Made by a program: the position numbers and the translations under genes. Below are positions 5,464-17,570 of a DNA stretch of 17,570 nt, piece by piece. The DNA is from a virus (lineage: Duplodnaviria; Heunggongvirae; Uroviricota; Caudoviricetes). The notes under the pieces are model-generated. The model was not told the origin of the DNA and made no database searches. It saw only the letters and a program-made list of their open reading frames with translations. Location: positions 1 through 17,570 of IMG/VR virus record IMGVR_UViG_3300003324_000363; one strand, 5' to 3'. How positions within the stretch are numbered: position 1 is the first letter of the stretch; each line of letters starts with the position of its first letter.

Positions 5464-5696
5464 TTTGGCTCATAGCTCACCTGAAAGAATGCTTTTACTC
5501 CACAAATATCACAGCTTGGGTCGCCATGAGATAGAAATTGAGTTGTAACAAAAACTTGTTTATTTTTAGCTTCTGCAATATATTGTATGCATTTTAACGG
5601 TAAATGGTCACTGCAACAGAATCCCATAACCATGAATGTAACCTGTCTTCTACAAAATAAGCTTTGTTCTGTTTCAGGTGGAAGATTCCTTTGCAT
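5460..5696 (-). CDS. Cys-rich hypothetical, possible zinc-binding
   Basis: 78 aa; C..., CCSDH...C, CDIC. Confidence 0.6.
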   Translation of the reverse strand: MQRNLPPETEQSLFCRRQVTFMVMGFCCSDHLPLKCIQYIAEAKNKQVFVTTQFLSHGDPSCDICGVKAFFQVSYEPK

Positions 5697-5922
5697 CTTG
5701 TTTTACATCCATATATTCAATATGAAGCCAGTCAACCACATGCCATTTGAATACATCAAAAGCCTTAGTCTTGAAATCAATATATAATGTGTTGCCAACT
5801 AATTGCACAATGACTTCTTCACATTCTAATTGTGCTGCGTATTTGCTACATTCAAGTTCAAATCCCCACTGGGTACGTATGTAACAATCTTTTACTTCTA
5901 ATCCGTTGTATGTGATTTTCAT
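5674..5922 (-). CDS. Hypothetical protein (likely start MKITYNG at 5922)
   Basis: ATG at 5922 forms an ATGA overlap with the upstream stop; the longer ORF-track start overlaps the neighbouring gene. Confidence 0.6.
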   Translation of the reverse strand: MKITYNGLEVKDCYIRTQWGFELECSKYAAQLECEEVIVQLVGNTLYIDFKTKAFDVFKWHVVDWLHIEYMDVKQDAKESST

Positions 5923-6182
5923 TGTTCGGCCTCTTTCTTTTCCCATAACGGCCACACTTCTTCTCCTTTCTCTAAAGGCTTGGCACACCACGGGCAGAAC
6001 ATAATGTCTGGAAGATACGTAATACCATCACCACGTACTGCCCATCCCCTATTCTCATATTCTGCTCTCATTCCTTGTGGCACAAAATAGCCTATTTCCC
6101 CTGCATCCCAATTTGGACGTTCTGAGTAATGATTAACATATTCTTTCATTGTTTGACAACATGGTTTTGGAAGGAATTTCAT
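5919..6182 (-). CDS. Hypothetical protein with CC...CPWC zinc-ribbon-like motif
   Basis: 87 aa; PCCQTM...IMFCPWCAKPL. Confidence 0.65.
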   Translation of the reverse strand: MKFLPKPCCQTMKEYVNHYSERPNWDAGEIGYFVPQGMRAEYENRGWAVRGDGITYLPDIMFCPWCAKPLEKGEEVWPLWEKKEAEQ

Positions 6183-6322
6183 TTTTTACGTTCTTCCCCT
6201 ACAGCATAGTTAGCAAAATCAATCATTGCTATCTTATAGCAACGATCTAATGTTTCGTTATCGTGATTCAAGTAATATTCACCACAAATATAGCATATTC
6301 TGCCCAGATTTAGTTCACTCAT
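6179..6322 (-). CDS. CxxC-H-C zinc-finger microprotein (47 aa)
   Basis: Hand translation: MSELNLGRICYICGEYYLNHDNETLDRCYKIAMIDFANYAVGEERKK; ATGA overlaps at both ends. Confidence 0.7.
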   Translation of the reverse strand: MSELNLGRICYICGEYYLNHDNETLDRCYKIAMIDFANYAVGEERKK

Positions 6323-6513
6323 TTCTTTCTCACAACTGTCTTGCCGTCATCATTGTTTGATACTGTAACAATATCAGAATCAGTAATACCATACTTTGGT
6401 GCCATTTCTTTCATAGCTTCATTTAAAGCACAAGCCATCTCGTCTAGGTTCTTCTTTTTCATTATTGTATTTAGCTTTTCAGCATCCTGCTCATCTAGTG
6501 GAACAATCGTCAT
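6319..6513 (-). CDS. Small protein, possibly ribbon-helix-helix-like DNA binder
   Basis: 64 aa; MTIVPLDEQDAEKLNTIM...ALNEAMKE has a strand-helix-helix pattern; has its own TATA box. Confidence 0.45.
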   Translation of the reverse strand: MTIVPLDEQDAEKLNTIMKKKNLDEMACALNEAMKEMAPKYGITDSDIVTVSNNDDGKTVVRKK

Positions 6514-6536
6514 AGGTGTTATTACAAAATCAGGTG

Positions 6537-6543
6537 TTTATAA
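6537..6543 (-). promoter_or_regulatory. Archaeal TATA box (TTATAAA)
   Basis: 24 nt upstream of ATG 6513; AACACCT occurs twice (6532-6538 and 6514-6520). Confidence 0.55.
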
Positions 6544-6666
6544 CTATGTTGATGTTCTACAGCAGATACATTTACAACTACAAGCAACTTCTTCTATCTT
6601 ACTGCCAGACGCATCTTGACAAAAACATTCACAATAGATACATTGTGTAGGCGTGTATTCTGTCAT
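6544..6666 (-). CDS. Cys-rich 40-aa peptide, metallothionein-like CxC clusters
   Basis: Hand translation: MTEYTPTQCIYCECFCQDASGSKIEEVACSCKCICCRTST (9 Cys); fills the gap between neighbours. Confidence 0.6.
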   Translation of the reverse strand: MTEYTPTQCIYCECFCQDASGSKIEEVACSCKCICCRTST

Positions 6667-6671
6667 CAAAA

Positions 6672-6941
6672 TCATTTAGCACCTGTGATATTAAAGTAGC
6701 CGTTGTGTGGGCAAACAATTACAGGTTCAAATGAGCATTTGTTATCAGTACATTTGTTAATGAATAGCTGTAAACAATATGGATGTGTAGCCAAGTAGTT
6801 TTCTGTTGCTTTTGTCGTATGGTATATCTGTGTTTCATCAGGAGAAACCTTTATTGTAGAAACCAGAGCACGACCAACAGCAACAGCTAATAAAATTGCA
6901 ACAACTATTATAGTGCAAAAGACAATAGGTGTTGGAATCAT
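6672..6941 (-). CDS. Small membrane protein (N-terminal TM, Cys/His C-terminus)
   Basis: IVFCTIIVVAILLAVAVG hydrophobic stretch. Confidence 0.65.
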   Translation of the reverse strand: MIPTPIVFCTIIVVAILLAVAVGRALVSTIKVSPDETQIYHTTKATENYLATHPYCLQLFINKCTDNKCSFEPVIVCPHNGYFNITGAK

Positions 6942-6942
6942 A

Positions 6943-7176
6943 CTACTTAGGCACCACCTTACATTCTGTTATTTCTGTGTGATGATAGATAGGCACAATG
7001 CTGCTTCCTACATGTATGAATTGAACCCAATCATGATATTTGCCTGTGCCATAGCACACTTCTTTCAATCTTTTAGCATCTAGTTCTGCATCGTGTTGTA
7101 TTTTAGCTTCAACTGCCCATGCAATTAAGCCGCCAACTCCTACAGCAATGAGTATGAGCAATATCTTCATATTCAC
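6943..7176 (-). CDS. Small membrane protein
   Basis: KILLILIAVGVGGLIAWAV TM segment. Confidence 0.65.
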   Translation of the reverse strand: MNMKILLILIAVGVGGLIAWAVEAKIQHDAELDAKRLKEVCYGTGKYHDWVQFIHVGSSIVPIYHHTEITECKVVPK

Positions 7177-7298
7177 AGTCTATCTACACTCCCACACACA
7201 TTACAAAAACGAACACATATTTCTTTGCCTTGGATAACACGTCTGTTGAATATGATAGCATCACTACCACATGCCCTGCATGACTCATACCGTGACAT
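7173..7298 (-). CDS. Zinc-ribbon microprotein (41 aa)
   Basis: Hand translation: MSRYESCRACGSDAIIFNRRVIQGKEICVRFCNVCGSVDRL; CxxCG twice; TTTATAA at 7331-7325 upstream. Confidence 0.7.
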   Translation of the reverse strand: MSRYESCRACGSDAIIFNRRVIQGKEICVRFCNVCGSVDRL

Positions 7299-7346
7299 TT
7301 AGAACATATGGGTGGTTAGCCGGATTATAAATCCTGCTACGTTTTG

Positions 7347-8297
7347 TTAGTTACTCACAGTAAAGCTTACTGTTGGTGCAAGTTTGAATGATACTGTTGT
7401 TGTGTTTGATGCTCCATCTGTAGCCTGTACACTTATTGTGTGTTGTGCAAATGTTGTTATGGTTACAGAAGCAGACCATGATGTAGTACCACTTGCTAGT
7501 TGATAAGCACCACCATCTACTGATACTTTCACAGAAGCAATACCAGAGCCAGAATCTGAAGCAGTGCCTGATATACCAACAGGAACGTTCCCAGATGTGC
7601 CGGTAACAACTTGACCAATAACAGGTGATGTTATTGTTATTGTTGGTGCAGTAGTATCGGTAGGAGTATTGGAAACTGTAACACTTTCAACTGCTGAAGA
7701 ACCTGTGACATTGTAGCCATTGATAGCTTTTGCTTGCAATGTATGAGTGCCTGTACTTAATGTTGCTGTGTCCAAGTTTATCGTGTAAGTATCCATAATC
7801 TGGCTGTTAGTATTACCGGCTATTGATGATTTCAATACACCATCAACAAATAGCTGAACTGTGGTTATCCCAGCAAAAGCACCAGCTTGAATCTTTACTG
7901 GAACGATTCCTGTTACTGTAGCATTGGCAACAGGTGAAGCAATTGATACTACAGGAGCAGCCGTAGCTGAACCTACATATAACAACATAGAATTACTTAC
8001 GACAGCACCATCTGGTGTTTTAGCCACAACTGTTTGTGGGTTAGCAACCAGTGGAATGTCTTGTGCAGGAGTAATACATGTAACATAACCATTATTTGTT
8101 GATATTTGCTTATACTGCGTTCCATTGAGATAAAAATTGATAGGTGTGCCATTAGGAACAAAAGCTCCATTTGCGTCCTTAACTTGAGCAGACATGTAAG
8201 CTGTACTGCCATACGTCATGAAAACCGGGTCTGTGCTAGGAGTTGCTTTGACTACGTTAGAATTGTATAGTAATATGCTAGCTACTGCCACAATCAA
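7347..8297 (-). CDS. Secreted or surface protein with three bacterial-Ig-like (Big) domains
   Basis: Hydrophobic N-terminus; VSIASPVANATVTG...LFVDGVLK...DTATLSTGTHTLQAKA and DTTAPTITITSP...ISGTASDSGSGIASVKVSVDGG...HTISVQATD are typical Big-domain repeats; start may be the GTG at 8291. Confidence 0.8.
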   Translation of the reverse strand: MIVAVASILLYNSNVVKATPSTDPVFMTYGSTAYMSAQVKDANGAFVPNGTPINFYLNGTQYKQISTNNGYVTCITPAQDIPLVANPQTVVAKTPDGAVVSNSMLLYVGSATAAPVVSIASPVANATVTGIVPVKIQAGAFAGITTVQLFVDGVLKSSIAGNTNSQIMDTYTINLDTATLSTGTHTLQAKAINGYNVTGSSAVESVTVSNTPTDTTAPTITITSPVIGQVVTGTSGNVPVGISGTASDSGSGIASVKVSVDGGAYQLASGTTSWSASVTITTFAQHTISVQATDGASNTTTVSFKLAPTVSFTVSN

Positions 8298-8314
8298 CGA
8301 TTATGGAAGTGGCG

Positions 8315-8404
8315 TATTTAAACCTGTATTTCCAGTAACAATGTTGCCTAGATTATAAATTATGCTATCTGCCAATCTTAACGTCTCTACTACAAATATT
8401 TAAA
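8315..8404. promoter_or_regulatory. Divergent archaeal promoter pair
   Basis: TTTAAATA on minus (8322-8315) upstream of the Ig-like gene; TTTAAA on plus (8399-8404) 22 nt before ATG 8426. Confidence 0.55.
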
Positions 8405-8425
8405 CAGGACAAACATAGCTAAATT

Positions 8426-8836
8426 ATGGCAAAGTCCATATTCCCACATTCATGCAAAATCTGTGAAAGTGACCTAGTGCTTCTAAAGACTGATAGCATA
8501 CAAATAGCACCAAGAGCACCGGGGGGAAGAGGAAGGAAAATAACTACTGTTCTTGCATGGTGTAGGCATTGTAGAACTGTGTTTGATAAAGATGGATTGA
8601 ACGTAGCTAATCTTCCAGTCCAGCCTGTTTACAAGACAAAAAAGCCATCAGAAATATTTGAAGAGGCAATGAAAATATACAATGCATTCAAACGTGGTGA
8701 GCTTAAACAAGTTGACCCGCCCAAGAGAAAGTCTGCTGGGTGTGGTGTTTGTGAGTGCCCTTCATCTGCTCATACAACATATGAGAGTGATGGAAAGGTT
8801 ATTTCAAGCTGTATGAATTGTAAAGCTGTGCATTAA
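8426..8836 (+). CDS. Double zinc-ribbon protein; the only convincing plus-strand gene
   Basis: CKIC...WCRHC and CGVC...H...CMNC; has its own TATA; converges on the TrmB gene with a 4-nt overlap. Confidence 0.75.
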   Translation: MAKSIFPHSCKICESDLVLLKTDSIQIAPRAPGGRGRKITTVLAWCRHCRTVFDKDGLNVANLPVQPVYKTKKPSEIFEEAMKIYNAFKRGELKQVDPPKRKSAGCGVCECPSSAHTTYESDGKVISSCMNCKAVH

Positions 8837-9654
8837 TTACACATCGCAAATACAAACTTGAATGTGTTTATCAATCCCTTGTTTGTAGTATAAACTGCAC
8901 TGGTATCTTTCTTTGTCATAATATCATCAAATATCATTATCATTTCTTTATCATCAATTATGAGAAAAGTTGTAGGCACAATCATTTCTATCTTTTTTAT
9001 ATAAATATCTCGTCTCTTCTCCCTGCTATCGTCATATCCAATGTATTGTGAGACGTTGCTAGTTGGTGTCTTAAAACCTACTTTTAGCCTGCCTGATAAA
9101 ATATCATCTGTTATTGACTCATTATACATTTTAGCCAAGTATCGTTCTGTTGCCAAAATCATGACTGTTTCATTTGCATTATCCACCATCTTTCTCATTC
9201 TTGCCATTAGTGGGGCATGACCTTCAATTACCTGAATAATGCCAGCATCGTCTTCAAGTGCAGGCAAAGCTTTTCTAACATATGTGTTTTGCAACAAATC
9301 AACAAGCTGTTTTCCATTGTATAGCTTTTTGAACTTTACTTCTTCATAAGCCATCAATGTTTTTACAATGTCTTCAAATGTGGTCACACTGTATAGTGTT
9401 TTTCTGTTCTTATGATAAGCTTCTAAAATGTTCTTTTTTGTTAATGTGGTGATGTATCTGTAAATTTCTGTTCGTTGGATGTTTAGATATTTTCCTATTT
9501 CAGATGCAGATAAAGAACCTCTAGTAAGCAAAAGCACAACAACTCTTGCTTCATTTTGTCCTAGACCAGCCTCCTGTAGAGCATAAACTATCTCGTTGGT
9601 TGCCTGAACTACTTTTGTATGTATGTCAATGTCTTGTGACAAGCTCCAACTCAA
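8833..9654 (-). CDS. TrmB-family transcriptional regulator (wHTH plus C-terminal effector/PLD-like domain)
   Basis: LQEAGLGQNEARVVVLLLTRGSLSASEIGKYLNIQRTEIYRYITTLTKKNIL is a TrmB-type HTH; IQVIEG...FLIIDDKEMIM...AVYTTNKGLI matches the TrmB C-terminal pattern. Confidence 0.85.
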   Translation of the reverse strand: MSWSLSQDIDIHTKVVQATNEIVYALQEAGLGQNEARVVVLLLTRGSLSASEIGKYLNIQRTEIYRYITTLTKKNILEAYHKNRKTLYSVTTFEDIVKTLMAYEEVKFKKLYNGKQLVDLLQNTYVRKALPALEDDAGIIQVIEGHAPLMARMRKMVDNANETVMILATERYLAKMYNESITDDILSGRLKVGFKTPTSNVSQYIGYDDSREKRRDIYIKKIEMIVPTTFLIIDDKEMIMIFDDIMTKKDTSAVYTTNKGLINTFKFVFAMCN

Positions 9655-10055
9655 TGTAATGTGATTTGCAATGTTTTTCCAGATGATTGTCCATGCATAG
9701 TTACCGTTCCCACAGATTTGTTTTCAAAGATAGTAAAAACATCGCCAAACTTGTCAGCCTTATCCATATGTATTGTTTTATCCCAAGATACTGTCATTTT
9801 TATGACTTCGTTTGCTTGGAAATGTTTTGCATAAATAAGCTTGCCATCATCGTGGTAAATCACACCTTGATCTTTAGAATAGTCATCATTTGGGTTGTTT
9901 GCTTTAAGTATCTGTGTTTGTGAATAGTCGTTTGGGTTGCCATTTAGACTATTGCTGTCGTCAGGATTGACATACGACAATGATAGCAGAGTAGCTATAA
10001 CTGCAAGTATGCCTCCACCAGAAACAACGCCTGCTATTGCACTATTTTTATTCAT
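9651..10055 (-). CDS. Membrane-anchored protein, coupled to the TrmB gene
   Basis: IAGVVSGGGILAVIATLLSL TM segment; NPNDY/NPNDDY internal repeat; TATATA at 10087-10082. Confidence 0.7.
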   Translation of the reverse strand: MNKNSAIAGVVSGGGILAVIATLLSLSYVNPDDSNSLNGNPNDYSQTQILKANNPNDDYSKDQGVIYHDDGKLIYAKHFQANEVIKMTVSWDKTIHMDKADKFGDVFTIFENKSVGTVTMHGQSSGKTLQITLH

Positions 10056-10097
10056 TGATGGGTAGAAATGTGGATAGAGAATATATAGCTTGACTTC

Positions 10098-10307
10098 TTA
10101 AACCTGTATTTCCCATTCATCTTCAAATGGCTTTACTTTCTCCATTTGAGCTTCAGTTATCATATCTTCCATATGCAACCAGATTAGCAGTGTTTTATCC
10201 ACATACTTTAGTTCGTTTTCATTAACATATGTGGAATCAAATGCCCGTCTACCTTCAATACGTGGTGCTCGGCTGATAAATTCCATAACATTCGAAGATA
10301 CTCTCAT
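10098..10307 (-). CDS. Array member 17: Cys-free head plus conserved helix (LIWLHMEDMI)
   Basis: ORF track 69 aa; ATGA coupling; shares the array tail motif. Confidence 0.75.
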   Translation of the reverse strand: MRVSSNVMEFISRAPRIEGRRAFDSTYVNENELKYVDKTLLIWLHMEDMITEAQMEKVKPFEDEWEIQV

Positions 10308-10507
10308 GCCTTTTCACCATTTAACATATCAGCAATGTGATAGAATATCAGGTCGTGTTTAGGTAGTTCCATGAGTGTTTCATCATACACATCAATATCT
10401 ACAAATTCACATGTTGTTGGTATAGGCACTCTTCCGTCAGTCAATGCCATATACTGGTCATATGTAAGTGTGAATATACTGTAGGCACCTTCTGGATAAC
10501 GTTTCAT
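10304..10507 (-). CDS. Array member 16: non-zinc-finger head plus conserved helix (LIFYHIADML)
   Basis: ORF track 67 aa; ATGA coupling. Confidence 0.75.
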   Translation of the reverse strand: MKRYPEGAYSIFTLTYDQYMALTDGRVPIPTTCEFVDIDVYDETLMELPKHDLIFYHIADMLNGEKA

Positions 10508-10716
10508 TGTTTAGAACCTGCCAATTCTGCTTCATTTATCATATCTTCAATGTGCAGGTATATCTTTTCTGTAGGTGTTAATAGTTTCAATTCTGAGTCT
10601 GTATAGGAAAGACAGTAGTATTTTGGCTGTAAAACTGATGCATATTCTACCACTCTATACTCTGGATACATTCTCATGAGAAATCCAGTTGCATTACGTT
10701 CTAAATATCTTCTCAA
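10504..10716 (-). CDS. Array member 15: non-zinc-finger head plus conserved helix (KIYLHIEDMI)
   Basis: ORF track 70 aa; TTG start overlapping the upstream TGA (TTGA). Confidence 0.75.
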   Translation of the reverse strand: MRRYLERNATGFLMRMYPEYRVVEYASVLQPKYYCLSYTDSELKLLTPTEKIYLHIEDMINEAELAGSKQ

Positions 10717-10862
10717 TCTACATTCGCCAGCTTTCCTAGCATATCTTTCATCTCATAATAGATTGCAATAGTTATACTCTTATGGTATTCTTTAGCATAG
10801 CAGCTCCAACAAACATACCTTTTGGCAAAATTGAAACAATTTTCAGCATTACATGTATGCAT
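10713..10862 (-). CDS. Array member 14: C4 zinc-finger plus helix (49 aa)
   Basis: Hand translation: MHTCNAENCFNFAKRYVCWSCYAKEYHKSITIAIYYEMKDMLGKLANVD. Confidence 0.85.
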   Translation of the reverse strand: MHTCNAENCFNFAKRYVCWSCYAKEYHKSITIAIYYEMKDMLGKLANVD

Positions 10863-10866
10863 CTAT

Positions 10867-11049
10867 TCATCCACCACGATTCCCATTCACAGTTTTAGCA
10901 TCAGAAGAGGAAGTATTTGCCTCTATCATTTCCTTCATTTCCCAGAATATGGCATTTGTCATATCAAAGTCCATTAACTTACAATAGCAACTTCTACATA
11001 GCACTGTGTTTGTCCCACTATCGCATTCTTTTATTACACACTTTTTCAA
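10867..11049 (-). CDS. Array member 13 (60 aa, TTG start)
   Basis: MKKCVIKECDSGTNTVLCRSCYCKLMDFDMTNAIFWEMKEMIEA...; TTG 1 nt after the upstream TAA. Confidence 0.85.
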   Translation of the reverse strand: MKKCVIKECDSGTNTVLCRSCYCKLMDFDMTNAIFWEMKEMIEANTSSSDAKTVNGNRGG

Positions 11050-11050
11050 G

Positions 11051-11206
11051 TTAGCTTGCCTCAATCCTGCCTAGCAGTTCTAGCATCTCTCCAAATATGG
11101 CATGTGTGATGTTTGTCTGTCCTGTTATTGGTGACTTGCAGAAACAACTCCAGCATAGCCTGCTTGATGTCAAGTTATCACAATGTTCTGTTTTACATTT
11201 GTTCAA
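11051..11206 (-). CDS. Array member 12 (51 aa, TTG start)
   Basis: Hand translation: MNKCKTEHCDNLTSSRLCWSCFCKSPITGQTNITHAIFGEMLELLGRIEAS. Confidence 0.85.
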   Translation of the reverse strand: MNKCKTEHCDNLTSSRLCWSCFCKSPITGQTNITHAIFGEMLELLGRIEAS

Positions 11207-11207
11207 G

Positions 11208-11348
11208 CTATTCAATCCCCTTCTTGCCTAGCATCTCTACCATTTCTCTGTATATTGCTTCTGTCATTGATAATGACAATATAGTGATATAACAACTCCA
11301 GCAGGTTCGATATTGTGTTACATTGGTGCACAATATACATTTGTTCAA
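11208..11348 (-). CDS. Array member 11 (46 aa, TTG start)
   Basis: Hand translation: MNKCILCTNVTQYRTCWSCYITILSLSMTEAIYREMVEMLGKKGIE. Confidence 0.85.
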   Translation of the reverse strand: MNKCILCTNVTQYRTCWSCYITILSLSMTEAIYREMVEMLGKKGIE

Positions 11349-11349
11349 C

Positions 11350-11508
11350 TCATTCATCTCCATTTGTCGAAGTTTTCTTTTCTGCTATCAACTCACTCAT
11401 CTCATGCCATATTACCTCTATAGCAGTCATCTTGTTATTCTTGTGGTAAAAACAGCTCCAACATACGGTGAAATAAGTTACATTTAAGCAATCTTTACAT
11501 TTATTCAA
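11350..11508 (-). CDS. Array member 10 (52 aa, TTG start)
   Basis: MNKCKDCLNVTYFTVCWSCFYHKNNKMTAIEVIWHEMSELIAEKK... Confidence 0.85.
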   Translation of the reverse strand: MNKCKDCLNVTYFTVCWSCFYHKNNKMTAIEVIWHEMSELIAEKKTSTNGDE

Positions 11509-11674
11509 CGTATGACCACCTAACCATAGCACCTTTTACACCATAAATCATTTCAAGAATGTTTCTTTCTATTGCATGTGTGGCATTTGTCTTTGGTTGT
11601 AGAATCTTTGCCCAGCAGCTCCAGCATAGTGACCATCCATTATGTTTGTAGTCACCACACATGCATCTAGTCAA
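11501..11674 (-). CDS. Array member 9 (57 aa, TTG start)
   Basis: MTRCMCGDYKHNGWSLCWSCWAKILQPKTNATHAIERNILEMIYG... Confidence 0.85.
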   Translation of the reverse strand: MTRCMCGDYKHNGWSLCWSCWAKILQPKTNATHAIERNILEMIYGVKGAMVRWSYVE

Positions 11675-11843
11675 TTTTACCTTTTCTCCTATGCAATGCC
11701 CCTGTAAATCCATGTAGCATTTCAAGTATCTCAAACTCTATTATGTTTACAGCATTGGCACCACGATTGTTTCTAGATAGCCAACATGACCAACAGTTGT
11801 CATGTCCCCATTCTTTATACATACCACAATTGCATTTTACCAT
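11667..11843 (-). CDS. Array member 8 (58 aa)
   Basis: Hand translation: MVKCNCGMYKEWGHDNCWSCWLSRNNRGANAVNIIEFEILEMLHGFTGALHRRKGKID. Confidence 0.85.
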   Translation of the reverse strand: MVKCNCGMYKEWGHDNCWSCWLSRNNRGANAVNIIEFEILEMLHGFTGALHRRKGKID

Positions 11844-12019
11844 TTCCTAGTACGCCACCTATCATTTGCTTCTTTTGCACCAAATACCATATCCACTATT
11901 TCCAGTTCTATAGCTTTCACAATACCTATGTCTGAAATGTGAACATACTCTACATAGCAAGACCAGCAATAGCCGTTTATCTGATCTTTATAATTTCCAC
12001 ATTCACATTTGTTTGTCAT
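11837..12019 (-). CDS. Array member 7 (60 aa)
   Basis: MTNKCECGNYKDQINGYCWSCY...KAIELEIVDMVFG... Confidence 0.85.
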   Translation of the reverse strand: MTNKCECGNYKDQINGYCWSCYVEYVHISDIGIVKAIELEIVDMVFGAKEANDRWRTRKW

Positions 12020-12022
12020 TTC

Positions 12023-12169
12023 TTATTCCCTCAACAACATATTCGTCATGTCTGACATGATTATGCTCAATATTGGCTCTCTGCTAACTCTTGTCCACCA
12101 ACAACGCCAACAGAATCCGGCTGGCACATCTGACCAATACGGACAGTCTTTTGTACCACAATGTGCCAT
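12023..12169 (-). CDS. Array member 6 (48 aa)
   Basis: Hand translation: MAHCGTKDCPYWSDVPAGFCWRCWWTRVSREPILSIIMSDMTNMLLRE; TAATG coupling. Confidence 0.85.
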   Translation of the reverse strand: MAHCGTKDCPYWSDVPAGFCWRCWWTRVSREPILSIIMSDMTNMLLRE

Positions 12170-12576
12170 TATTCTTTATACCCCACAAAATGTTTGTAGA
12201 ATGCTGTCATTTCTGGGTATAACATTTCTTTGACTTCCCATTCTATTGCAGATACAACATTGCAGGTTTTTGCTACTTGAATATACAAACAAGCAGAGCA
12301 TAAGTTTTCAGGAAATGCCCTCAATAAAGACAATTTGCCACATTTGGAACAATTACTGAAGCTCATGTACGTATCCCCTAAGTTTTTATATATTGACCTT
12401 TCTGAAAAGAGCATCTCATGAATCTCCCATTCTATTGTGTTTATGACAGCATATCCTTTCCCACCAAAACTTTCACTTTCTGCATAATAACATTTAGCAC
12501 ATGACCCACATGCATTGTATATTTTCCCAAAGCTTTGGCAAGTTGGACAATCAGCATAACAATATGGCTCTTTCAT
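12169..12576 (-). CDS. Array member 5: two units fused in frame (135 aa)
   Basis: Unit a CPTC...CAKCYY...TIEWEIHEML; unit b from Met71 (12366) CSKC...CSACLY...AIEWEVKEML. Confidence 0.85.
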   Translation of the reverse strand: MKEPYCYADCPTCQSFGKIYNACGSCAKCYYAESESFGGKGYAVINTIEWEIHEMLFSERSIYKNLGDTYMSFSNCSKCGKLSLLRAFPENLCSACLYIQVAKTCNVVSAIEWEVKEMLYPEMTAFYKHFVGYKE

Positions 12577-12725
12577 TAGCTGCCACTCAACATGTCATAA
12601 AGGTGATGGGTAAGTACAGACAGTGCACGGTCTGTGTATCCGTAGTCATCAAAATAACAATTCCAGCATCTAGGAAGATGTTTAGGTTTAAACTTGATGC
12701 ATAATGGGCATATTTCTGGTGACAT
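12576..12725 (-). CDS. Array member 4 (49 aa)
   Basis: Hand translation: MSPEICPLCIKFKPKHLPRCWNCYFDDYGYTDRALSVLTHHLYDMLSGS; TAATG at both ends. Confidence 0.85.
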   Translation of the reverse strand: MSPEICPLCIKFKPKHLPRCWNCYFDDYGYTDRALSVLTHHLYDMLSGS

Positions 12726-12901
12726 TATGCACTTACCTCTTTTAGCATGTCTCTCATTTCGGCAATGATTGCAGAAATTATAGGAGCAGGATAGCCAGCA
12801 ATCTTATAGTAGCATGTGGCGCAGCACAAATTGCTGCCCCACCTATCTGCATTGTCCACTTTACATTTGCAACCACACTGAAAACAAAGTCCAATAGCCA
12901 T
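12725..12901 (-). CDS. Array member 3 (58 aa)
   Basis: Hand translation: MAIGLCFQCGCKCKVDNADRWGSNLCCATCYYKIAGYPAPIISAIIAEMRDMLKEVSA. Confidence 0.85.
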   Translation of the reverse strand: MAIGLCFQCGCKCKVDNADRWGSNLCCATCYYKIAGYPAPIISAIIAEMRDMLKEVSA

Positions 12902-12903
12902 TA

Positions 12904-13068
12904 TTAGTCTACCTCTGGAAATCTTATCATATTTCTTATTTCAAAATCTATTGTCAATAGAACAGGATTTTCATAGCCTAGTGATCGATAATAGCATGGC
13001 GAACAAGAATTTACAACTTCGTGTATTTTACACACACGCCCACATTTTGGGCAAGCATCAATAGTCAT
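12904..13068 (-). CDS. Array member 2 (54 aa)
   Basis: Hand translation: MTIDACPKCGRVCKIHEVVNSCSPCYYRSLGYENPVLLTIDFEIRNMIRFPEVD. Confidence 0.85.
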   Translation of the reverse strand: MTIDACPKCGRVCKIHEVVNSCSPCYYRSLGYENPVLLTIDFEIRNMIRFPEVD

Positions 13069-13232
13069 TGTGCATTTATCTCCAACTCACGTTTATCAGC
13101 TAACATCTCGCCCATGTCGTATTCGATTATTGACAAAACATCAAAGACCTTATTATCTCTAGCATAGCAGCATCGCCAGCAATAATTGTTAAATGGTGCT
13201 ACATACCCATTACATTGCCTGCAATAACGCAC
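13065..13232 (-). CDS. Array member 1 (55 aa, GTG start, probably leaderless)
   Basis: Hand translation: MRYCRQCNGYVAPFNNYCWRCCYARDNKVFDVLSIIEYDMGEMLADKRELEINAQ. Confidence 0.8.
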   Translation of the reverse strand: MRYCRQCNGYVAPFNNYCWRCCYARDNKVFDVLSIIEYDMGEMLADKRELEINAQ

Positions 13233-13254
13233 ACAGATTAAAACTTGGTAATAA

Positions 13255-13270
13255 TATATAAATATATTTA
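13255..13270 (-). promoter_or_regulatory. Array promoter: TTTATATA box overlapped by the palindrome TAAATATATTTA
   Basis: TATA ends 23 nt before GTG 13232; the same 16-mer recurs at 16143-16158. Confidence 0.65.
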
Positions 13271-13546
13271 CTTATGGTGCTGGAAGTGTGGATTCTTGTA
13301 TTTTACAGGCAATACCTTTCTAACCCGGCTAAAATCATAGCCCATGCTTCTTACCTCATTGCTTATTATTGTGCTTATCAGGTGTAAAGGCACCTGTTTA
13401 CTATGTTCTAGCTCATATGCACGTTGCAAAATGTAAGCTGTTATATCTAGTCTTGTTGGTGCTCCCACACCTTCAAGCTTACTTGGCGGCAGCAAGTCGG
13501 ATTCTGTCGATCTTTTGATTGTCTTGTAGGGACGTTTGCCTTTCAT
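13268..13546 (-). CDS. Basic hypothetical protein, possibly DNA-binding
   Basis: 92 aa, K/R-rich; ATGA coupling to the HNH gene. Confidence 0.6.
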   Translation of the reverse strand: MKGKRPYKTIKRSTESDLLPPSKLEGVGAPTRLDITAYILQRAYELEHSKQVPLHLISTIISNEVRSMGYDFSRVRKVLPVKYKNPHFQHHK

Positions 13547-13914
13547 GTTGCAATCACTTGCCCATACATATCATAGTGTGTAACTTCATTGTTAGAGTAT
13601 CTTTTGATAAAGTTACAATTAGCACATAGAATCTGGAATATTGTCGTTGCCTCTTCTGGATGACGTAAATAATATTTTACAAACTGTTCATTGTTAGGAA
13701 AAAGGAGTCTATGTTTTGTGCCTCCACCTTTAATGTGGTCTATCTGCAATGCTCGATAATCAGCAAATCCACATTGTGCACATTTATCTCCTAATAATTT
13801 TATCAAGCTTATTCTATTTTTTACTCGTCTTATTCTTTCGGCAATACGTTTCTTTTCCTTTAACTCTGGCTTTTTGTTGTATTCGTGCATGTAGGCTTTC
13901 CTAGCAAGAGACAC
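13543..13914 (-). CDS. HNH endonuclease
   Basis: CAQCG...LQIDHIKGGG...FQILCANCNFIK zinc-binding HNH signature; TTTATA at 13943-13938, 24 nt before the GTG. Confidence 0.85.
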   Translation of the reverse strand: MSLARKAYMHEYNKKPELKEKKRIAERIRRVKNRISLIKLLGDKCAQCGFADYRALQIDHIKGGGTKHRLLFPNNEQFVKYYLRHPEEATTIFQILCANCNFIKRYSNNEVTHYDMYGQVIAT

Positions 13915-13951
13915 AAGTTTCCACTCCTAAAGAACAGTATAAATCAAATAT

Positions 13952-14752
13952 CTAGTCGTGAGCATACATGGCACCATTATATGGGTCGAAAGTAATTGTC
14001 ACAGTTCCTACCCGTTTAGCTTCTTTTGGATTTATTTCCACATACCCGTCCACTCCTCTTGCATATCCTTGCAAGAATGTGCCAGTATTACAATACAATA
14101 TTTTTCTTTCAATTGGTGAATTTGTTTTATAATCATACCCTACTCTGATTCCACTTCTAGTCCAAGTATCGTGATTGTGCCCCATGAGAATGACATCTGC
14201 ATCAAAATCTGACCCAATCTGTTTCATTCTATTCACTGACCCTCCTGCCTGCATCCCAGAATAACCTCCATGCAAAGCTAAAATCAAATAGTTTCGTATT
14301 GTTTGCCCTTTATACTTACAACTCAAATGGATGTAGGCTAATCTTCCAAGATATGAGCATCCTAACGGGTTACAAATGTCGGTAATAAATCGTTTCATAT
14401 TGATGGTACGCCATTCATGATTCCCACTCAATAGTCCCCAAGTTTTATGTTTCAGTGGCTGCCATAACTGTAGAAAATACTCAACTTGCTCCTCAGTCAT
14501 CATATGCTGTCTGTCAACTGTTTCAGGATTCCAACGTTTGTCAACCTGTCCTCCTGCATAAGCCATGATGTTATCAATGTAATCACCCATGCCAATCGTG
14601 TAGTAATCCTTGTTATTGGCAACAAATTTGACATGCTTTTTGAATTCGTCAACATCACAAGCTATGTTGCCTAGATGAATGTCCCCCAGTGGACGTACGT
14701 GAATTTTTGCATCTTTGGTTGGTAATTCGATAGTTACACGTTTACAGAACAC
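13952..14752 (-). CDS. Calcineurin-like metallophosphoesterase
   Basis: All five motifs present: GDIHLG, GDYIDN, GNHE, HG, GHNH. Confidence 0.9.
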   Translation of the reverse strand: MFCKRVTIELPTKDAKIHVRPLGDIHLGNIACDVDEFKKHVKFVANNKDYYTIGMGDYIDNIMAYAGGQVDKRWNPETVDRQHMMTEEQVEYFLQLWQPLKHKTWGLLSGNHEWRTINMKRFITDICNPLGCSYLGRLAYIHLSCKYKGQTIRNYLILALHGGYSGMQAGGSVNRMKQIGSDFDADVILMGHNHDTWTRSGIRVGYDYKTNSPIERKILYCNTGTFLQGYARGVDGYVEINPKEAKRVGTVTITFDPYNGAMYAHD

Positions 14753-14819
14753 TGGGTTTCGTTATTGGAGAGCTTATTTTGGCTATAACTAGACTTTGTT
14801 GCCAATGTTAATCGTTCAA

Positions 14820-14951
14820 CTATGACGGAACATCATGTTCAAAGACCTCACGTTCATCAACCCATCCACAGCCACGACAATTAGCCCACTCATCAAACCA
14901 AACTCCAACTTTTGTTGATTGACATTTAGGACACCATACTCTTGTTGGCAA
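14820..14951 (-). CDS. Zinc-ribbon microprotein (43 aa, TTG start)
   Basis: Hand translation: MPTRVWCPKCQSTKVGVWFDEWANCRGCGWVDEREVFEHDVPS. Confidence 0.7.
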   Translation of the reverse strand: MPTRVWCPKCQSTKVGVWFDEWANCRGCGWVDEREVFEHDVPS

Positions 14952-15068
14952 TTATGTTTTCTTCTCCATGGTCATCATGGTGCATTCTAAACATAGCCAA
15001 TGATTTTTCCACCAAACAAAAATGCCATCTGTGTGCAATTCTGCTCCACAGTTTTCACATTTGAACAT
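14952..15068 (-). CDS. C4 zinc-finger microprotein (38 aa)
   Basis: Hand translation: MFKCENCGAELHTDGIFVWWKNHWLCLECTMMTMEKKT. Confidence 0.7.
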   Translation of the reverse strand: MFKCENCGAELHTDGIFVWWKNHWLCLECTMMTMEKKT

Positions 15069-15183
15069 GTGTTTTGTCGTTCTCCTTCTCAGAATCATTC
15101 CAACCTTTAGACCATCCTATGCTATAGCCAAATAGAAAAGCCAAGACACAGCTTGCAACTCCACCAAGTATTAATTCTAACAT
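15055..15183 (-). CDS. Small membrane protein (42 aa)
   Basis: Hand translation: MLELILGGVASCVLAFLFGYSIGWSKGWNDSEKENDKTHVQM. Confidence 0.65.
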   Translation of the reverse strand: MLELILGGVASCVLAFLFGYSIGWSKGWNDSEKENDKTHVQM

Positions 15184-15375
15184 TTATGATCTTTTGTACT
15201 TTTGAGTATAGTTATTTCCAACAATTACAGCAACTATGTGTGCCCACAACTCATCTTCTGGATGGAGATGGTGATACCTTGAAATCATTATCGAAATGTC
15301 ATCACTCATAATAGGTTGACCATCGAGAGTAAACTTTTCCATATCAAGAATGTGTGTATTGCTCATATTAGCCAC
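15184..15375 (-). CDS. Hypothetical protein (start may be ATG 15366)
   Basis: ORF track 63 aa; abuts neighbours. Confidence 0.55.
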   Translation of the reverse strand: MANMSNTHILDMEKFTLDGQPIMSDDISIMISRYHHLHPEDELWAHIVAVIVGNNYTQKYKRS

Positions 15376-15529
15376 TTTTGACAGTTACCCAAACTTTAGA
15401 TGGCATCTTGTCATTATAGCCATCATAATCATCACACCAAATCTTTGTTATAGGTTCATCTATTTTCAATAGTTTGGCAATCTCTTCTATTGTTAATTCG
15501 TATGTTTGCTCTCCAGCTATTTTCTTCAT
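15368..15529 (-). CDS. Hypothetical protein (53 aa)
   Basis: Hand translation: MKKIAGEQTYELTIEEIAKLLKIDEPITKIWCDDYDGYNDKMPSKVWVTVKSG. Confidence 0.6.
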   Translation of the reverse strand: MKKIAGEQTYELTIEEIAKLLKIDEPITKIWCDDYDGYNDKMPSKVWVTVKSG

Positions 15530-15530
15530 G

Positions 15531-15713
15531 CTATAATACCACCTTGTACTTTAGCTTTCTTCCTCTACTTTCCATGCCTTTGCACTTATCAACATGTCTG
15601 TTAAATCTGCCAATGAATCTTATGAATCTTCGACATTTGGGACATTGATAATAAGCTCGTGGCTCATCTGCTCTTATGCTTGCAATTTCTTCCCAAGTTA
15701 TGCCGGGTGCCAA
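15531..15713 (-). CDS. C2HC-type zinc-finger small protein
   Basis: YYQCPKCRRF...FNRHVDKC. Confidence 0.65.
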   Translation of the reverse strand: MAPGITWEEIASIRADEPRAYYQCPKCRRFIRFIGRFNRHVDKCKGMESRGRKLKYKVVL

Positions 15714-15717
15714 TTTG

Positions 15718-16119
15718 TCAATATCCTAAAGTTGACAAGAATGTACCTATTTTTTCATAAGTCCAACAATGGGTGTCGTTCAAATGTGGTATTAGTTCTG
15801 CAAGTGACATTGATGTCCAACTGCTATGTTCGGGACAAGCATACCTTTGTCTGCCATTTACCCCATACTGCTTCAAAATTTTTGTCTGATAGTGTTCATA
15901 ATCAATATCTCCCAAAGCATCATCGTCCATGCCAAGATTTTTACCTAATAGCCCAATTGCACAATATGAATTTTTGTGGAACGGTTCAAAATCAATTAGA
16001 AACTGAAAACTTTGTTTCAACTTCATTGGGTTTGCTATCAATGCTTCACTTGCCTTCAGCTTTTCCTGTTCCTGTATTGGTTGTATGACTTTTATTTCCT
16101 CTTCATGGACTAACGCCAT
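15718..16119 (-). CDS. Hypothetical viral protein
   Basis: 133 aa; C-terminal IPHLNDTHCWTYEKIG; has its own TATA box. Confidence 0.65.
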   Translation of the reverse strand: MALVHEEEIKVIQPIQEQEKLKASEALIANPMKLKQSFQFLIDFEPFHKNSYCAIGLLGKNLGMDDDALGDIDYEHYQTKILKQYGVNGRQRYACPEHSSWTSMSLAELIPHLNDTHCWTYEKIGTFLSTLGY

Positions 16120-16142
16120 ACAAATACAAAACTGGGCTTTAG

Positions 16143-16158
16143 TATATAAATATATTTA
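16143..16158 (-). promoter_or_regulatory. TATA box plus palindrome, identical to the array promoter 16-mer
   Basis: + strand tatataaatatattta; ends 24 nt before ATG 16119. Confidence 0.65.
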
Positions 16159-16159
16159 A

Positions 16160-16405
16160 TTAAGTATGGATTTGGCAAATATCATTGCACAGGTGATATG
16201 TGCTTTTAGGTGCAAAACCATATAGTTTTGTAGCTGAAAAATATGATGGCTCTAGTGCTGTGAACTCGGCACAACGTACCAAATCAAAAGTCATCTGGTC
16301 TTGCCATCTTACTAGCTTGCAATATTCGTGATTTGCTTCCTCAAAATTCTTTATCCTCTCTTGCAATGTATTATGAGTTGCTGCACAATAAGCAAGTGCG
16401 TCCAT
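16160..16405 (-). CDS. Hypothetical protein
   Basis: 81 aa ORF, co-directional. Confidence 0.55.
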   Translation of the reverse strand: MDALAYCAATHNTLQERIKNFEEANHEYCKLVRWQDQMTFDLVRCAEFTALEPSYFSATKLYGFAPKSTYHLCNDICQIHT

Positions 16406-16444
16406 TAGTAAACTTTACTAAATATCATATATTTTAATATAGTT

Positions 16445-16505
16445 ATAAAAGTGAGCTAGGCACTATCCTTTGAGTCTCCAGCTCTTGGTATTCTGTGCCT
16501 AGCCC
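16445..16505 (-). terminator. GC-rich hairpin followed by a T tract (terminator or structured RNA end)
   Basis: GGGCTAGGCAC (16505-16495) pairs with GTGCCTAGCTC (16463-16453), 11 bp with one G-U; followed by ACTTTT. Confidence 0.5.
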
Positions 16506-16636
16506 AACCTTGCTTCCACTAATTCATGGAGAAATTAGATGAAAACAGGATTTCACTCTGATAACGGATGCCTTGTCGAAGTAAGTTCTGACGTGCAGGT
16601 AAGTCAGTCACGCCAAACTTGCTTTGGTAAAAATGA

Positions 16637-16810
16637 TTAATGAGAAGTTAACAATATTGCAATTGTTAATGCTGCCAATCCTATTGCAATGTTTTGTACA
16701 ACATTCCAAATGAATTCCCAATCATGCTTGTGTTTTTTGTGATGTTGTTTTGTAATATGAATAGTTGTTGAAGCTGAAGAATCGTGAACAAAAAAAGAAG
16801 GTATGGGCAT
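16637..16810 (-). CDS. 57-aa protein with His/Lys patch and C-terminal TM helix
   Basis: Hand translation: MPIPSFFVHDSSASTTIHITKQHHKKHKHDWEFIWNVVQNIAIGLAALTIAILLTSH. Confidence 0.7.
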   Translation of the reverse strand: MPIPSFFVHDSSASTTIHITKQHHKKHKHDWEFIWNVVQNIAIGLAALTIAILLTSH

Positions 16811-16815
16811 TTTCC

Positions 16816-17151
16816 TTATGCCTTTCTGTATGTATTTACGTCTAGCTTTGCATCTGTGCCTCTGTCTGCTTTTGTAAAGCCATCTAGCTGCACTGTCTGT
16901 GAAGCTACTGCACCTGCATCTATTGTTGAAACATCACTTTCCTTCACAACATTTCCGTTAACAACTACCTGATACATTACATCAGCTGGTGTTGCACGGT
17001 TGTTCTGCAAGTCAAATGTAATCTGGTATCCTGTTTCTGGTGCTAGGCTCTGTGGTGCTACCAAATTCAATGTGGCAACTACGTCTGCGTCATTTACATG
17101 TATTGCACTTGATGCTGTACTATCTAATACGAATCCATCTGGTATTGGCAT
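16816..17151 (-). CDS. Small Ig-like (CARDB-like) beta-sandwich protein
   Basis: ITFDLQNNRATPADVMYQVVVNGNVV...IDAGAVASQTVQL has a CARDB-type pattern. Confidence 0.55.
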   Translation of the reverse strand: MPIPDGFVLDSTASSAIHVNDADVVATLNLVAPQSLAPETGYQITFDLQNNRATPADVMYQVVVNGNVVKESDVSTIDAGAVASQTVQLDGFTKADRGTDAKLDVNTYRKA

Positions 17152-17189
17152 GGTACTCTAAACTTAGCTTTCATCACAAATATGAATTT

Positions 17190-17330
17190 TTAGATTTCTG
17201 GCTTTTGACATGAGCATGGAGTATGCTGGCAATAAACAACACTGCCATAATGAAGAAGCATAATATCCAAGTTTACCACATACTCAAACACTTGGTGGTT
17301 ACAGTTTTTGCAGGTTTTATATTTTGTCAA
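17190..17330 (-). CDS. Cys/His zinc-binding microprotein (46 aa; alternative ATG at 17339)
   Basis: Hand translation: MTKYKTCKNCNHQVFEYVVNLDIMLLHYGSVVYCQHTPCSCQKPEI. Confidence 0.6.
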   Translation of the reverse strand: MTKYKTCKNCNHQVFEYVVNLDIMLLHYGSVVYCQHTPCSCQKPEI

Positions 17331-17570
17331 AGAATACATTACCTGACTGGAAATAACTTACAGCCATTAAAAATGCATCACCCAAGTCAAACGTCAATTT
17401 CTTTTTATCAGGATGCCCTCTCTCATTTATTTCAACTGAACGTAATTGAGCAATCAAATCTTTGAAATCTGGATGAATTCTAACCATTCTCTCACGTACA
17501 CGTGTTGGTGCCAATCCACTCATGTCTGTTAGCATTTCCCTAAACATCACTGGTTCAACAGATATTGGTG
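17317..17570 (-). CDS. terL: Terminase large subunit, C-terminal RNase H-like nuclease end (partial)
   Basis: Frame is open to the window edge (PISVEPVMFRE...); KDLIAQLRSVE...KKLTFDLGDAFLMAVSYF matches the terminal acidic D-x-x-D-A motif of TerL nucleases; portal on the same strand. Confidence 0.7.
   Translation of the reverse strand, partial: PISVEPVMFREMLTDMSGLAPTRVRERMVRIHPDFKDLIAQLRSVEINERGHPDKKKLTFDLGDAFLMAVSYFQSGNVFFDKI

Follow-up and report, generated by a model that had tools for sequence, protein, structure and literature searches.

The window analyzed here is a 17,570-nucleotide stretch of a 99.7-kb (~100-kb) tailed virus genome with genes for a family-B polymerase, MCM, PriL, RadA, and an HK97-type capsid, probably a virus of Nitrososphaeria (ammonia-oxidising-type archaea). 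On its minus strand, 17 consecutive ORFs run from position 13232 down to 10098 and encode 18 protein units, with open frames back to back over 3.1 kb on this single strand only. The array occupies an accessory region of the archaeal virus genome, a block at ~8.8 to 13.2 kb which is absent from 17 related viral contigs. Pfam searches with ten neighboring proteins returned TrmB, Big_7, Metallophos, and a weak Endonuclease_7. The features are listed in the direction of transcription.

13255..13262, minus strand: putative TATA box TTTATATA, 23 nt upstream of the GTG start at 13232
13065..13232, minus strand: unit 1, 55 aa, GTG start, C4 head, helix IEYDMGEML
12904..13068, minus strand: unit 2, 54 aa, ATGA overlap with unit 1, helix IDFEIRNMI
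12725..12901, minus strand: unit 3, 58 aa, additional Cys in head, helix IIAEMRDML
12576..12725, minus strand: unit 4, 49 aa, His variant of the helix, LTHHLYDML
12169..12576, minus strand: units 5a and 5b, fused in one 135-aa ORF, two profile domains (60 and 59 bits)
12023..12169, minus strand: unit 6, 48 aa, first pair C-x4-C, helix IMSDMTNML
11837..12019, minus strand: unit 7, 60 aa, first pair C-x-C, helix IELEIVDMV
11667..11843, minus strand: unit 8, 58 aa, first pair C-x-C, helix IEFEILEML
11501..11680, minus strand: unit 9, ~59 aa from GTG 11680, helix IERNILEMI
11350..11532, minus strand: unit 10, at most 60 aa, helix IWHEMSELI
11208..11363, minus strand: unit 11, 51 aa, helix IYREMVEML
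11051..11215, minus strand: unit 12, 54 aa, helix IFGEMLELL
10867..11064, minus strand: unit 13, 60 to 65 aa, CRSC in place of CWSC, helix IFWEMKEMI
10713..10862, minus strand: unit 14, 49 aa, helix IYYEMKDML
10504..10716, minus strand: unit 15, 57 to 70 aa, single Cys, helix IYLHIEDMI
10304..10507, minus strand: unit 16, 67 aa, one Cys, acidic head, helix IFYHIADML
10098..10307, minus strand: unit 17, 69 aa, zero Cys, helix IWLHMEDMI
10081..10087, minus strand: TATATAT, its first base (10087) 32 nt before ATG 10055 of the next gene

Neighboring ORFs overlap by 1, 4, 7, 8, or 14 nt or are separated by gaps of 2 to 4 nt. Two longer-looking junctions (-68 and -32) arise only when the longest ORF is taken. 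The longest ORF of unit 9 begins at TTG 11734; its start is most likely GTG 11680, which has a GGAG upstream and gives the 14-nt overlap. For unit 15, ATG 10677, which the public gene call uses, is a possible start and leaves a 35-nt gap. Unit 5b, inside the double ORF, retains its own ATG at 12366, with GGGG 11 nt and ATATATA 27 nt upstream. Shine-Dalgarno-like 4-mers precede 12 of the 18 starts (background, 0.19 to 0.22). The public protein collection, as searched, lacks seven of the units.

TTTATATA, the probable promoter of the array, stands alone as a strong TATA-like word on the minus strand from 13300 to 12400; transcripts of the first gene would have little or no leader. The array itself has this single strong TATA and almost no T-runs. 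The gene after the array (ATG 10055) encodes a 134-aa membrane-anchored protein, and no T-run terminator lies between the two; the TATATAT at 10081..10087 probably marks the end of the array's unit. By these signals, the units appear to be packed for coupled translation behind one TATA box.

Four cysteines are present in 15 of the 18 units, in a CxxC-type pair followed by a C-[W]-x-C-aromatic pattern. The first pair is separated by one, two, or four residues and the last pair by two, followed by C, Y, F, W, or L; between the two pairs lie 8, 10, or at least 12 residues, never 11. A helix motif of the type I-x-x-[EDHN]-[IMLV]-x-[EDN]-[ML]-[LIV] matches all 18 units, versus three matches in the other 103,114 six-frame residues of the genome, and a stricter form matches 15 times in the array and nowhere else in the genome. 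Its Ile is found in 17 units, the Met at position 8 in 16, and the acidic positions in 13 to 16. Around the helix axis, the hydrophobic columns (an I, M/I, M, L stripe) fall at 320 to 80 degrees over four turns, and the two acidic columns lie at 240 and 300 degrees; the side from 140 to 220 degrees is hypervariable. Units 15, 16, and 17 carry the helix without the Cys head.

An earlier note, made from the letters alone, had described the locus as 17 tightly joined ORFs with 18 units behind one TATA promoter, with many SD-like words, a C4 head in fifteen units, and the helix motif in all 18; the junctions, start signals, Cys pattern count, and regular-expression searches reported above bear this out.

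A profile built from the 18 units matched only these units in the genome (E values of 3e-10 to 3e-34; next hit, 0.009). Leave-one-out profiles recovered each of the 15 Cys units, at E values from 1e-5 to 5e-13 (7e-10 for unit 1 and 1.6e-5 for unit 4). Against the profile of the Cys units, the three Cys-less units scored 0.34 (unit 15), 0.17 (unit 16), and 0.081 (unit 17), through the helix region alone; their membership is weakly indicated, by ~13 to 20 residues and by array position. They may be decayed zinc knuckles with the same fold, and thus they do not prove the helix to be an independent module.

The conserved Cys, Ser, Leu, Glu, and Ile columns are encoded by mixed synonymous codons, including both Ser codon boxes. 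Synonymous divergence among units is saturated (pS, 0.69 to 0.85). Nonsynonymous divergence is lower in the head (pN, 0.48) and helix (0.43) than in the linkers and tails (0.64 to 0.66), and the linkers and the opposite face of the helix vary as much as saturated sequence. Selection acts on the four Cys and, in the long helix, on a single face with its hydrophobic stripe and two acidic flanks, while the rest drifts; helix and Cys are the most conserved parts of the aligned units. We are highly confident, from these sequence comparisons, that the units form a real family under protein-level selection. Chance ORFs or a repetitive DNA element would fit the seven units absent from public gene calls, but conservation is at the amino acid and not the nucleotide level, SD-like signals are enriched, and the frames stay open back to back on one strand; this reading has a negligible probability and is effectively refuted by the codon-level tests.

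Pairwise identity drops as units lie farther apart in the array (r = -0.51; permutation p = 1e-4), and DNA similarity between units remains only across motif-coding stretches, for example, 83% identity between units 15 and 17 over the 36 nt encoding the helix. Saturated synonymous sites and neutral-looking linkers indicate old tandem duplicates. The family is best described as lineage-specific zinc-knuckle proteins of ~50 to 70 residues, which would have grown by old local tandem duplication. The profile E values, pN and pS, and codon usage agree with the earlier proposal of paralogous microproteins on a modular plan whose loops and linkers share little, and the comparison of head and helix among the units shows protein-level selection on both. 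Its term "diversified repertoire" does not stand for active diversification, given the saturated pS and the neutral-looking linkers.

The earlier note had not recognized the family, and neither profile nor database searches assigned it to a known one. No relatives were found in 1.84 billion protein representatives, in IMG/VR, in metagenome or genome contigs, in GenBank phages, in 401 Nitrososphaeria genomes, or in the 17 related viral contigs. PHROG profiles gave three single-member matches (E values of 0.0065 to 0.077), none common to different units. By these searches, this would be an orphan family, new to the databases searched and found only in this virus so far.

The AlphaFold2 model of unit 1 (pLDDT, 77.8) has strands at residues 2 to 3 and 10 to 11 and helices at 19 to 26 and 32 to 54. 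Helix 19-26 begins at the second Cys pair, and the conserved long helix comes directly after it. The model follows a C4 zinc knuckle or treble-clef-like plan, with the first pair on a β-hairpin and the second at the helix start, and the aligned half of the double ORF, unit 5b, has the same fold plan. Each unit is therefore predicted to be a β-hairpin zinc knuckle with a short helix and a long amphipathic helix. The model had no significant fold or family match in Foldseek, VIA, or Pfam; its structural neighbors are helical hairpins. The best sequence look-alike among solved structures was 7oqy_Y, the zinc ribbon of an RNA polymerase subunit M paralog, with a whole-sequence E value of 0.0034 but per-domain values of 0.19 and 13, reflecting only the Cys pattern. 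Pfam gave no match of the units to the RNA polymerase subunit M/TFS zinc ribbon, and zf-A20 (PF01754) was unmatched by all 18 even at E values up to 10.

Our explanation joins the zinc-knuckle family to a mechanism based on a shared helix surface, and as a whole we put it forward tentatively, at somewhat short of an even chance. The units would be protein-binding modules that are co-produced, probably at an early stage of infection. On the long helix, the conserved face would serve as a shared interaction surface, either for one common hub (host or viral) or for fellow family members; paralog-specific binding would come from the loops and tails, which vary, and from the reverse side of the helix. 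The Cys-less units would present the same helix on a different or decayed head. Conservation of the helix is probably in part structural, through packing on the C-W-x-C-aromatic helix.

If that packing were the whole story, the units would be self-contained mini-domains in which the helix is the core of a small zinc-stabilized fold, each paralog acting alone without a shared partner, much like the generic small zinc-finger accessory genes that accumulate in variable regions of large viruses. The AlphaFold2 model places the conserved helix directly behind the short C-W-x-C-aromatic helix, an I, M/I, M, L stripe is what a 50-residue zinc protein needs as a core, the head's W and aromatic residue are conserved together with the helix, and the model's neighbors are helical hairpins. 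The stripe could be entirely buried on the unit's own short helix, leaving no shared docking surface. However, core columns usually exchange L, I, V, M, and F freely, as columns 60, 61, 68, and 72 do here, whereas the Ile (17/18) and Met (16/18) are nearly fixed and two flanking acidic positions are retained; in addition, three units that have lost the whole Cys head still carry the helix. We regard the mini-domain explanation as rather unlikely, with a substantial residual chance. Next to the acidic positions is a K/R, semi-conserved behind the last Cys in 10 of the 15 units, so that internal salt bridges could form here. The helix as the conserved element of the earlier note is upheld in its conservation and its persistence without the Cys head; its docking role is a proposal that competes with packing into the unit's own core behind the short helix.

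A more specific form of the shared-surface mechanism is a combinatorial adaptor system, in which the invariant acidic, Met-rich helix plugs each unit into one hub and the heads bring different targets to that hub or block them there. Candidates for the hub include viral proteins and host factors of transcription, replication, division, or proteolysis, and the Cys-less units would add non-zinc heads to the repertoire. This system, which we judge unlikely, would if true have no precedent among archaeal viruses. An anti-defence or host-takeover role is a guess from context.

The units might also be small nucleic acid-binding regulators, with heads reading different DNA or RNA sites and the acidic helix dimerising or contacting the archaeal transcription machinery, in the manner of an activator with an acidic activation helix. 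Zinc ribbons and knuckles frequently bind nucleic acids, 7oqy_Y is a polymerase zinc ribbon, 12 of the 18 heads are mildly basic (+1 to +3), and a TrmB-type regulator gene lies two genes downstream of the array, beyond the 134-aa gene. Yet the 7oqy_Y match reflects a generic CxxC...CxxC pattern, one knuckle of ~25 residues is too small for sequence-specific reading, and a search of the array and its surroundings for repeated DNA words resembling operators gave none. The full-length proteins are close to neutral or acidic (net charge, -7 to +4, mostly near zero), so protein binding fits better than nucleic acid binding. We consider such regulators a poor prospect.

Two further readings are very improbable. 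In one, the units would be precursors of a modified or secreted, RiPP-like peptide family. Such precursors, as in prochlorosin-type and follower-peptide systems, typically come in arrays of many short paralogs that combine a constant part with a variable, Cys-rich one; here the C-terminal helix would be the "follower" recognition element and the Cys-rich N-terminal part the variable core. Against this stand the fixed zinc-knuckle Cys spacing, the confident predicted fold, and the three members counted as Cys-less. Signal peptides and cleavage motifs are absent from the units, and Pfam found no maturation or modifying enzyme, protease, or transporter/exporter family among the ten neighboring proteins. 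In the other reading, the units would handle metal: the two Met of an M-x-x-M (i and i+3), which share one helix face, would join the four Cys in binding or buffering zinc or copper. The host would be a copper-dependent ammonia oxidiser, and ammonia oxidisers rely heavily on copper. But the first Met is present in only 9 of the 18 units, buffering needs no eighteen diverged copies, and no metal transporter or chaperone family was found by Pfam among the same ten proteins.

Returning to the shared-surface mechanism, the adaptor families F-box, SOCS-box, BTB, and poxvirus ankyrin/PRANC combine a constant docking element with a variable recognition part. The array resembles them, conceptually only, in having many paralogs with one short conserved helix-type element and the rest varied; it differs in that there is no homology and no known hub and that the units are much smaller.

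The N terminus of Rabex-5 has an A20-type zinc finger followed by a long helix with a MIU ubiquitin-binding motif (PDB 2c7m, 2fid, and 2fif; PMC3737748). Rabex-5 was the second-best sequence match among solved structures (E value of 0.056, nonsignificant) and ranked 8th in Foldseek. As in the units, a C-x(2-4)-C ... C-x2-C-aromatic knuckle leads into a long helix, which in Rabex-5 itself binds. In A20 fingers the spacing is C-x(2-4)-C-x11-C-x2-C, and the middle gap of the units is never 11. Their helix motif differs from MIU, and the viral genome has no ubiquitin or Prok-JAB gene. The C(P)XCG one-domain zinc-finger micro-proteins of Haloferax volcanii, encoded by scattered single chromosomal genes, act via binding and not catalysis (PMC6562870, PMC11241148). 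They share with the units an archaeal context, a size of <70 residues, and a single C4 site, whereas the units belong to a tandemly arranged viral family that has C-W-S-C-aromatic plus an invariant helix and have no sequence match to them.

A close parallel in organization is with the variable ("hyperplastic") regions of large tailed viruses, for example, those of T4 type, which contain tandem arrays of zinc-finger or zinc-ribbon mini-genes (PMC2839356, PMC4122927). Both consist of many tiny Cys-rich paralogs, tightly packed on one strand in a block lacking in relatives. The array described here differs in being a separate family with no sequence relative, in having no stereotyped junction cassette and no per-gene promoter-terminator unit, and in carrying an acidic Met-rich helix in every unit, retained where the zinc head is lost. 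It is a real new family within a known kind of viral gene array.

The earlier note had described a gap-free array of 17 ORFs, comprising 18 paralogous units, at positions 10098-13232, with a four-Cys head in fifteen units and a helix motif in all 18, and the ORFs, their junctions and an alignment of the 18 units bear out both parts of that description. The minus-strand ORFs fill the region from 13232 down to 10098, leaving no intergenic room, and adjacent ORFs either overlap by 1, 4, 7, 8 or 14 nt or lie 2-4 nt apart. Two seemingly long overlaps, at units 9 and 15, vanish under more sensible start choices; for unit 15 the start may be an internal ATG, matching the public gene call. Standard gene callers overlook about 40% of such genes, as the array illustrates. 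The features that bear on its layout and expression are as follows.

TTTATATA box, 23 nt upstream of the first start codon of the array: TATA-like
12169-12576, minus strand: ORF of 135 aa containing two units, 5a and 5b
12366-12393, minus strand: own ATG of unit 5b (12366), with GGGG 11 nt upstream and ATATATA starting 27 nt upstream
11680, minus strand: GTG start codon of unit 9, with GGAG upstream

Unit 5b still carries a separate start codon (ATG), GGGG as an SD-like word and an upstream ATATATA, so the double unit looks as if two former genes had been fused by read-through after losing the stop codon between them, and unit 5b might also be produced separately. The first start codon of the array has no SD-like word; together with the TATA-like box, this is the arrangement usual in archaea when the first gene is leaderless. 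SD-like 4-mers lie at -20 to -4 of 12 of the 18 starts, compared with a frequency of 0.19-0.22 at random positions. There is only one T5 run inside the array, and a second TATA-like word sits before the next gene downstream. The simplest reading is that the array would be transcribed as one polycistronic message with coupled translation.

In the alignment, four Cys residues are present in 15 of the 18 units. The two Cys of the first pair are separated by 1, 2 or 4 residues; the second pair has the form C-[W]-x-C, with Y, F, W, L or C as the next residue. The helix motif, [IL]-x-x-[EDHN]-[IMLV]-x-[EDN]-[ML]-[LIV], is found in 18/18 units. When a profile of the 18 units was searched against the six-frame translation of the whole virus genome, only array units were retrieved (E values of 3e-10 to 3e-34; next best, 0.009), and leave-one-out profiles retrieved every Cys-bearing unit with E values of 1e-5 to 5e-13. 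A regular expression for the helix gave 18 matches in the array versus 3 in the 103,114 other six-frame residues of the genome, and a stricter form gave 15 versus 0. The last three units (15, 16 and 17), which have no more than one Cys, matched a profile of the Cys units with E values of only 0.08 to 0.34, in the helix region alone. Their membership rests on the short motif, on their position in the array and, for units 15 and 17, on 83% identity in the DNA of the helix codons.

The conserved columns are encoded by mixed codons: Cys by TGT and TGC, Ser by both codon boxes, Leu by four codons, Glu by GAA and GAG, and Ile by ATA and ATC. The pS and pN values come from comparisons between paralogs, no orthologues of the family having been found. 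Synonymous differences are saturated (pS of 0.69-0.85), while pN is 0.48 in the zinc head and 0.43 in the helix versus 0.64-0.66 in linkers and tails. DNA-level repeats persist only across the motif-coding stretches, with 60-83% identity, and units are less similar the farther apart they lie in the array (r = -0.51, p = 1e-4). The saturated pS, the motif-only repeats and the distance decay therefore show that the family arose by ancient, local tandem duplication and has been retained since. The diversified repertoire proposed in the earlier note, if read as an actively diversifying cassette, does not fit saturated synonymous sites and old duplicates. The selection signature is very clean, with four Cys and one helix face retained and the remainder free, and it pinpoints the residues for mutation.

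We modeled unit 1 with AlphaFold2, using the 18 paralogs as the input alignment. The model (mean pLDDT, 77.8) has a beta-hairpin knuckle and two helices: a short one (residues 19-26), starting from the second Cys pair, and a long one (residues 32-54), within which the conserved motif falls. In a model of the double unit, the well-aligned half repeats this plan; the pTM is 0.35 and the first half lacks alignment depth, so the model is uninformative on packing between units. When units 7 and 8 were predicted as a complex with two zinc ions and without alignments, the chains folded poorly. Plotted on a helical wheel, I, M/I, M, L/I and two further conserved hydrophobic columns line up in a stripe that is about 120 degrees wide and extends through four turns. 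Two acidic columns (acidic in 13/18 and 16/18 units) border it on one side, and the opposite face varies as much as the linkers.

We are highly confident that the array encodes a real, translated and selected orphan family of zinc-knuckle microproteins that are co-expressed; its mode of action is what we infer. Our tentative proposal, which we hold quite possible, is that the units have an interaction surface in common, the conserved face of the helix: in each unit it would contact one partner shared by all or other members of the family. In line with this, the Ile and Met positions hardly vary, in contrast to other core-type columns, which interchange freely; the two flanking acidic residues are retained, the helix is kept on three heads without a zinc site, and the overall charge is near neutral. 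The main rival explanation is that the conserved helix is only the core of a small zinc fold. A 50-residue zinc domain requires such a stripe for its own core, and the predicted structure sets the helix beside the conserved W and aromatic residue of the head; we regard this explanation as plausible but less likely than the shared surface. The net charge of single units spans -7 to +4, with most values close to zero. Nucleic-acid-binding regulators seem to us an improbable identity for the units. Each of the remaining readings is very improbable.

To our knowledge, hardly any of the viruses that infect ammonia-oxidising archaea have been cultivated. If the helix is a common docking element, it would give access to a hub, of the host or of the virus, in a lineage of archaea that is important for the global nitrogen cycle, and constant-anchor, variable-head adaptor families would exist among archaeal-virus microproteins. 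If it is only a fold core, the array would represent a new but ordinary zinc-finger family.

That the family is unrecognised, as the earlier note had it, agrees with profile and other searches, which were empty or at chance level. Against 1.84 billion protein representatives, the only full-length matches of the 18-unit profile were the window's own proteins; the remaining matches, long Cys-repeat proteins aligned on the Cys part alone, were discarded. The 90%-identity clusters of the array proteins are all singletons from the virus contig. No relative was found in IMG/VR with sub-alignments of the units, in metagenome and genome contigs, or in GenBank phages by tblastn. A degenerate DNA pattern for CWxC...IxxEMxEM gave seven matches in IMG/VR, all seven rejected for in-frame stops. 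Nothing common to several units was found in Pfam or PHROGs. Foldseek searches of PDB, BFVD and AFDB clusters, a fold search of a 48,000-chain representative set (VIA wide), and searches of the ESM Atlas by features and by shape gave no significant match. Six-frame profile searches of 401 Nitrososphaeria genomes gave 17 weak matches, most on the Cys part only. The best of these came from a 4.3-Mb genome (G037), in the following loci.

L028, L036, L037 and L041, on contigs C4 and C2 of G037: copies of a DNA repeat that is at least about 115 nt long

At least four copies are present and only one has a start codon, so we take the element to be a repeat rather than a relative of the array and rejected the matches as chance. 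Its translation mimics C-W-S-C-F-Y followed by a short hydrophobic-acidic stretch. In the same 401 genomes, a DNA pattern for the helix motif gave 6 matches versus 12 for a reversed control, with a zinc head in 0/6.

The array is absent from all 17 IMG/VR contigs with the same metallophosphatase (L006 to L022; 51-68% identity). In these related viruses the phosphatase gene and a next gene of roughly 92 codons are conserved, with divergence beyond; the three contigs with listed gene order have a gene of about 90-100 codons after the metallophosphatase. No relative of the TrmB-like gene was found in IMG/VR. The block at about 8.8-13.2 kb (8833-13232) is a private, variable region of the virus genome. 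In the window, the metallophosphatase gene and the 92-codon gene are separated by another gene.

13543-13914, minus strand: Cys-rich protein of 123 aa with a weak Endonuclease VII/HNH-type match (E value of 0.003)

Since the two neighboring genes overlap directly in the three relatives with listed gene order, this gene looks like an insertion, putatively of a homing-type nuclease.

The window covers positions 1-17,570 of the virus genome, a single contig of 99,684 nt. The first 26 nt recur at its end (1-26 and 99659-99684), and IMG/VR classes the record under direct terminal repeats; despite a CheckV completeness of 72, the genome is probably complete or was assembled as a circle. Nearly every gene is on the minus strand. 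A family-B DNA polymerase, MCM, large primase subunit and RadA, together with an HK97-type capsid protein, identify a tailed virus of archaea whose replication genes are of the archaeo-eukaryotic kind; an N6/N4 DNA methylase, a NAPRTase-family enzyme and sugar-nucleotide enzymes are also encoded. The best RadA matches (36-37% identity) are to two marine metagenome-assembled genomes, one labelled Nitrosopelagicus. The array is the largest gene family within the accessory region. Tiny putative zinc proteins are abundant throughout 5-17 kb of the window, and small minus-strand ORFs of 47-87 aa with CxxC pairs flank the array (14952-15713, 17190-17339 and 5299-6322); profile searches found these flanking ORFs to be unrelated to the array family.

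Among solved structures, the profile has no significant match. Its best hit is to a paralog of RNA polymerase subunit M, in the zinc ribbon, with a whole-sequence E value of 0.0034 and per-domain E values of just 0.19 and 13, on a generic Cys pattern. The A20 finger of Rabex-5 is matched at an E value of 0.056, likewise on a generic Cys pattern. Membership of the units in the A20 type is not supported, and no ubiquitin or JAB gene is present in the virus genome. In plan, Rabex-5 is the nearest look-alike: its finger leads into a helix that serves as a binding motif in its own right (PMC3737748). Large viruses are already known to carry arrays of tiny zinc-finger paralogs in their variable regions (PMC2839356, PMC4122927), and one-domain zinc-finger microproteins are numerous in archaea (PMC6562870, PMC11241148). 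The novelty of the present array lies in the family as such, in the number of its units (18) and in the constant acidic, Met-rich helix, which has outlasted the zinc head.
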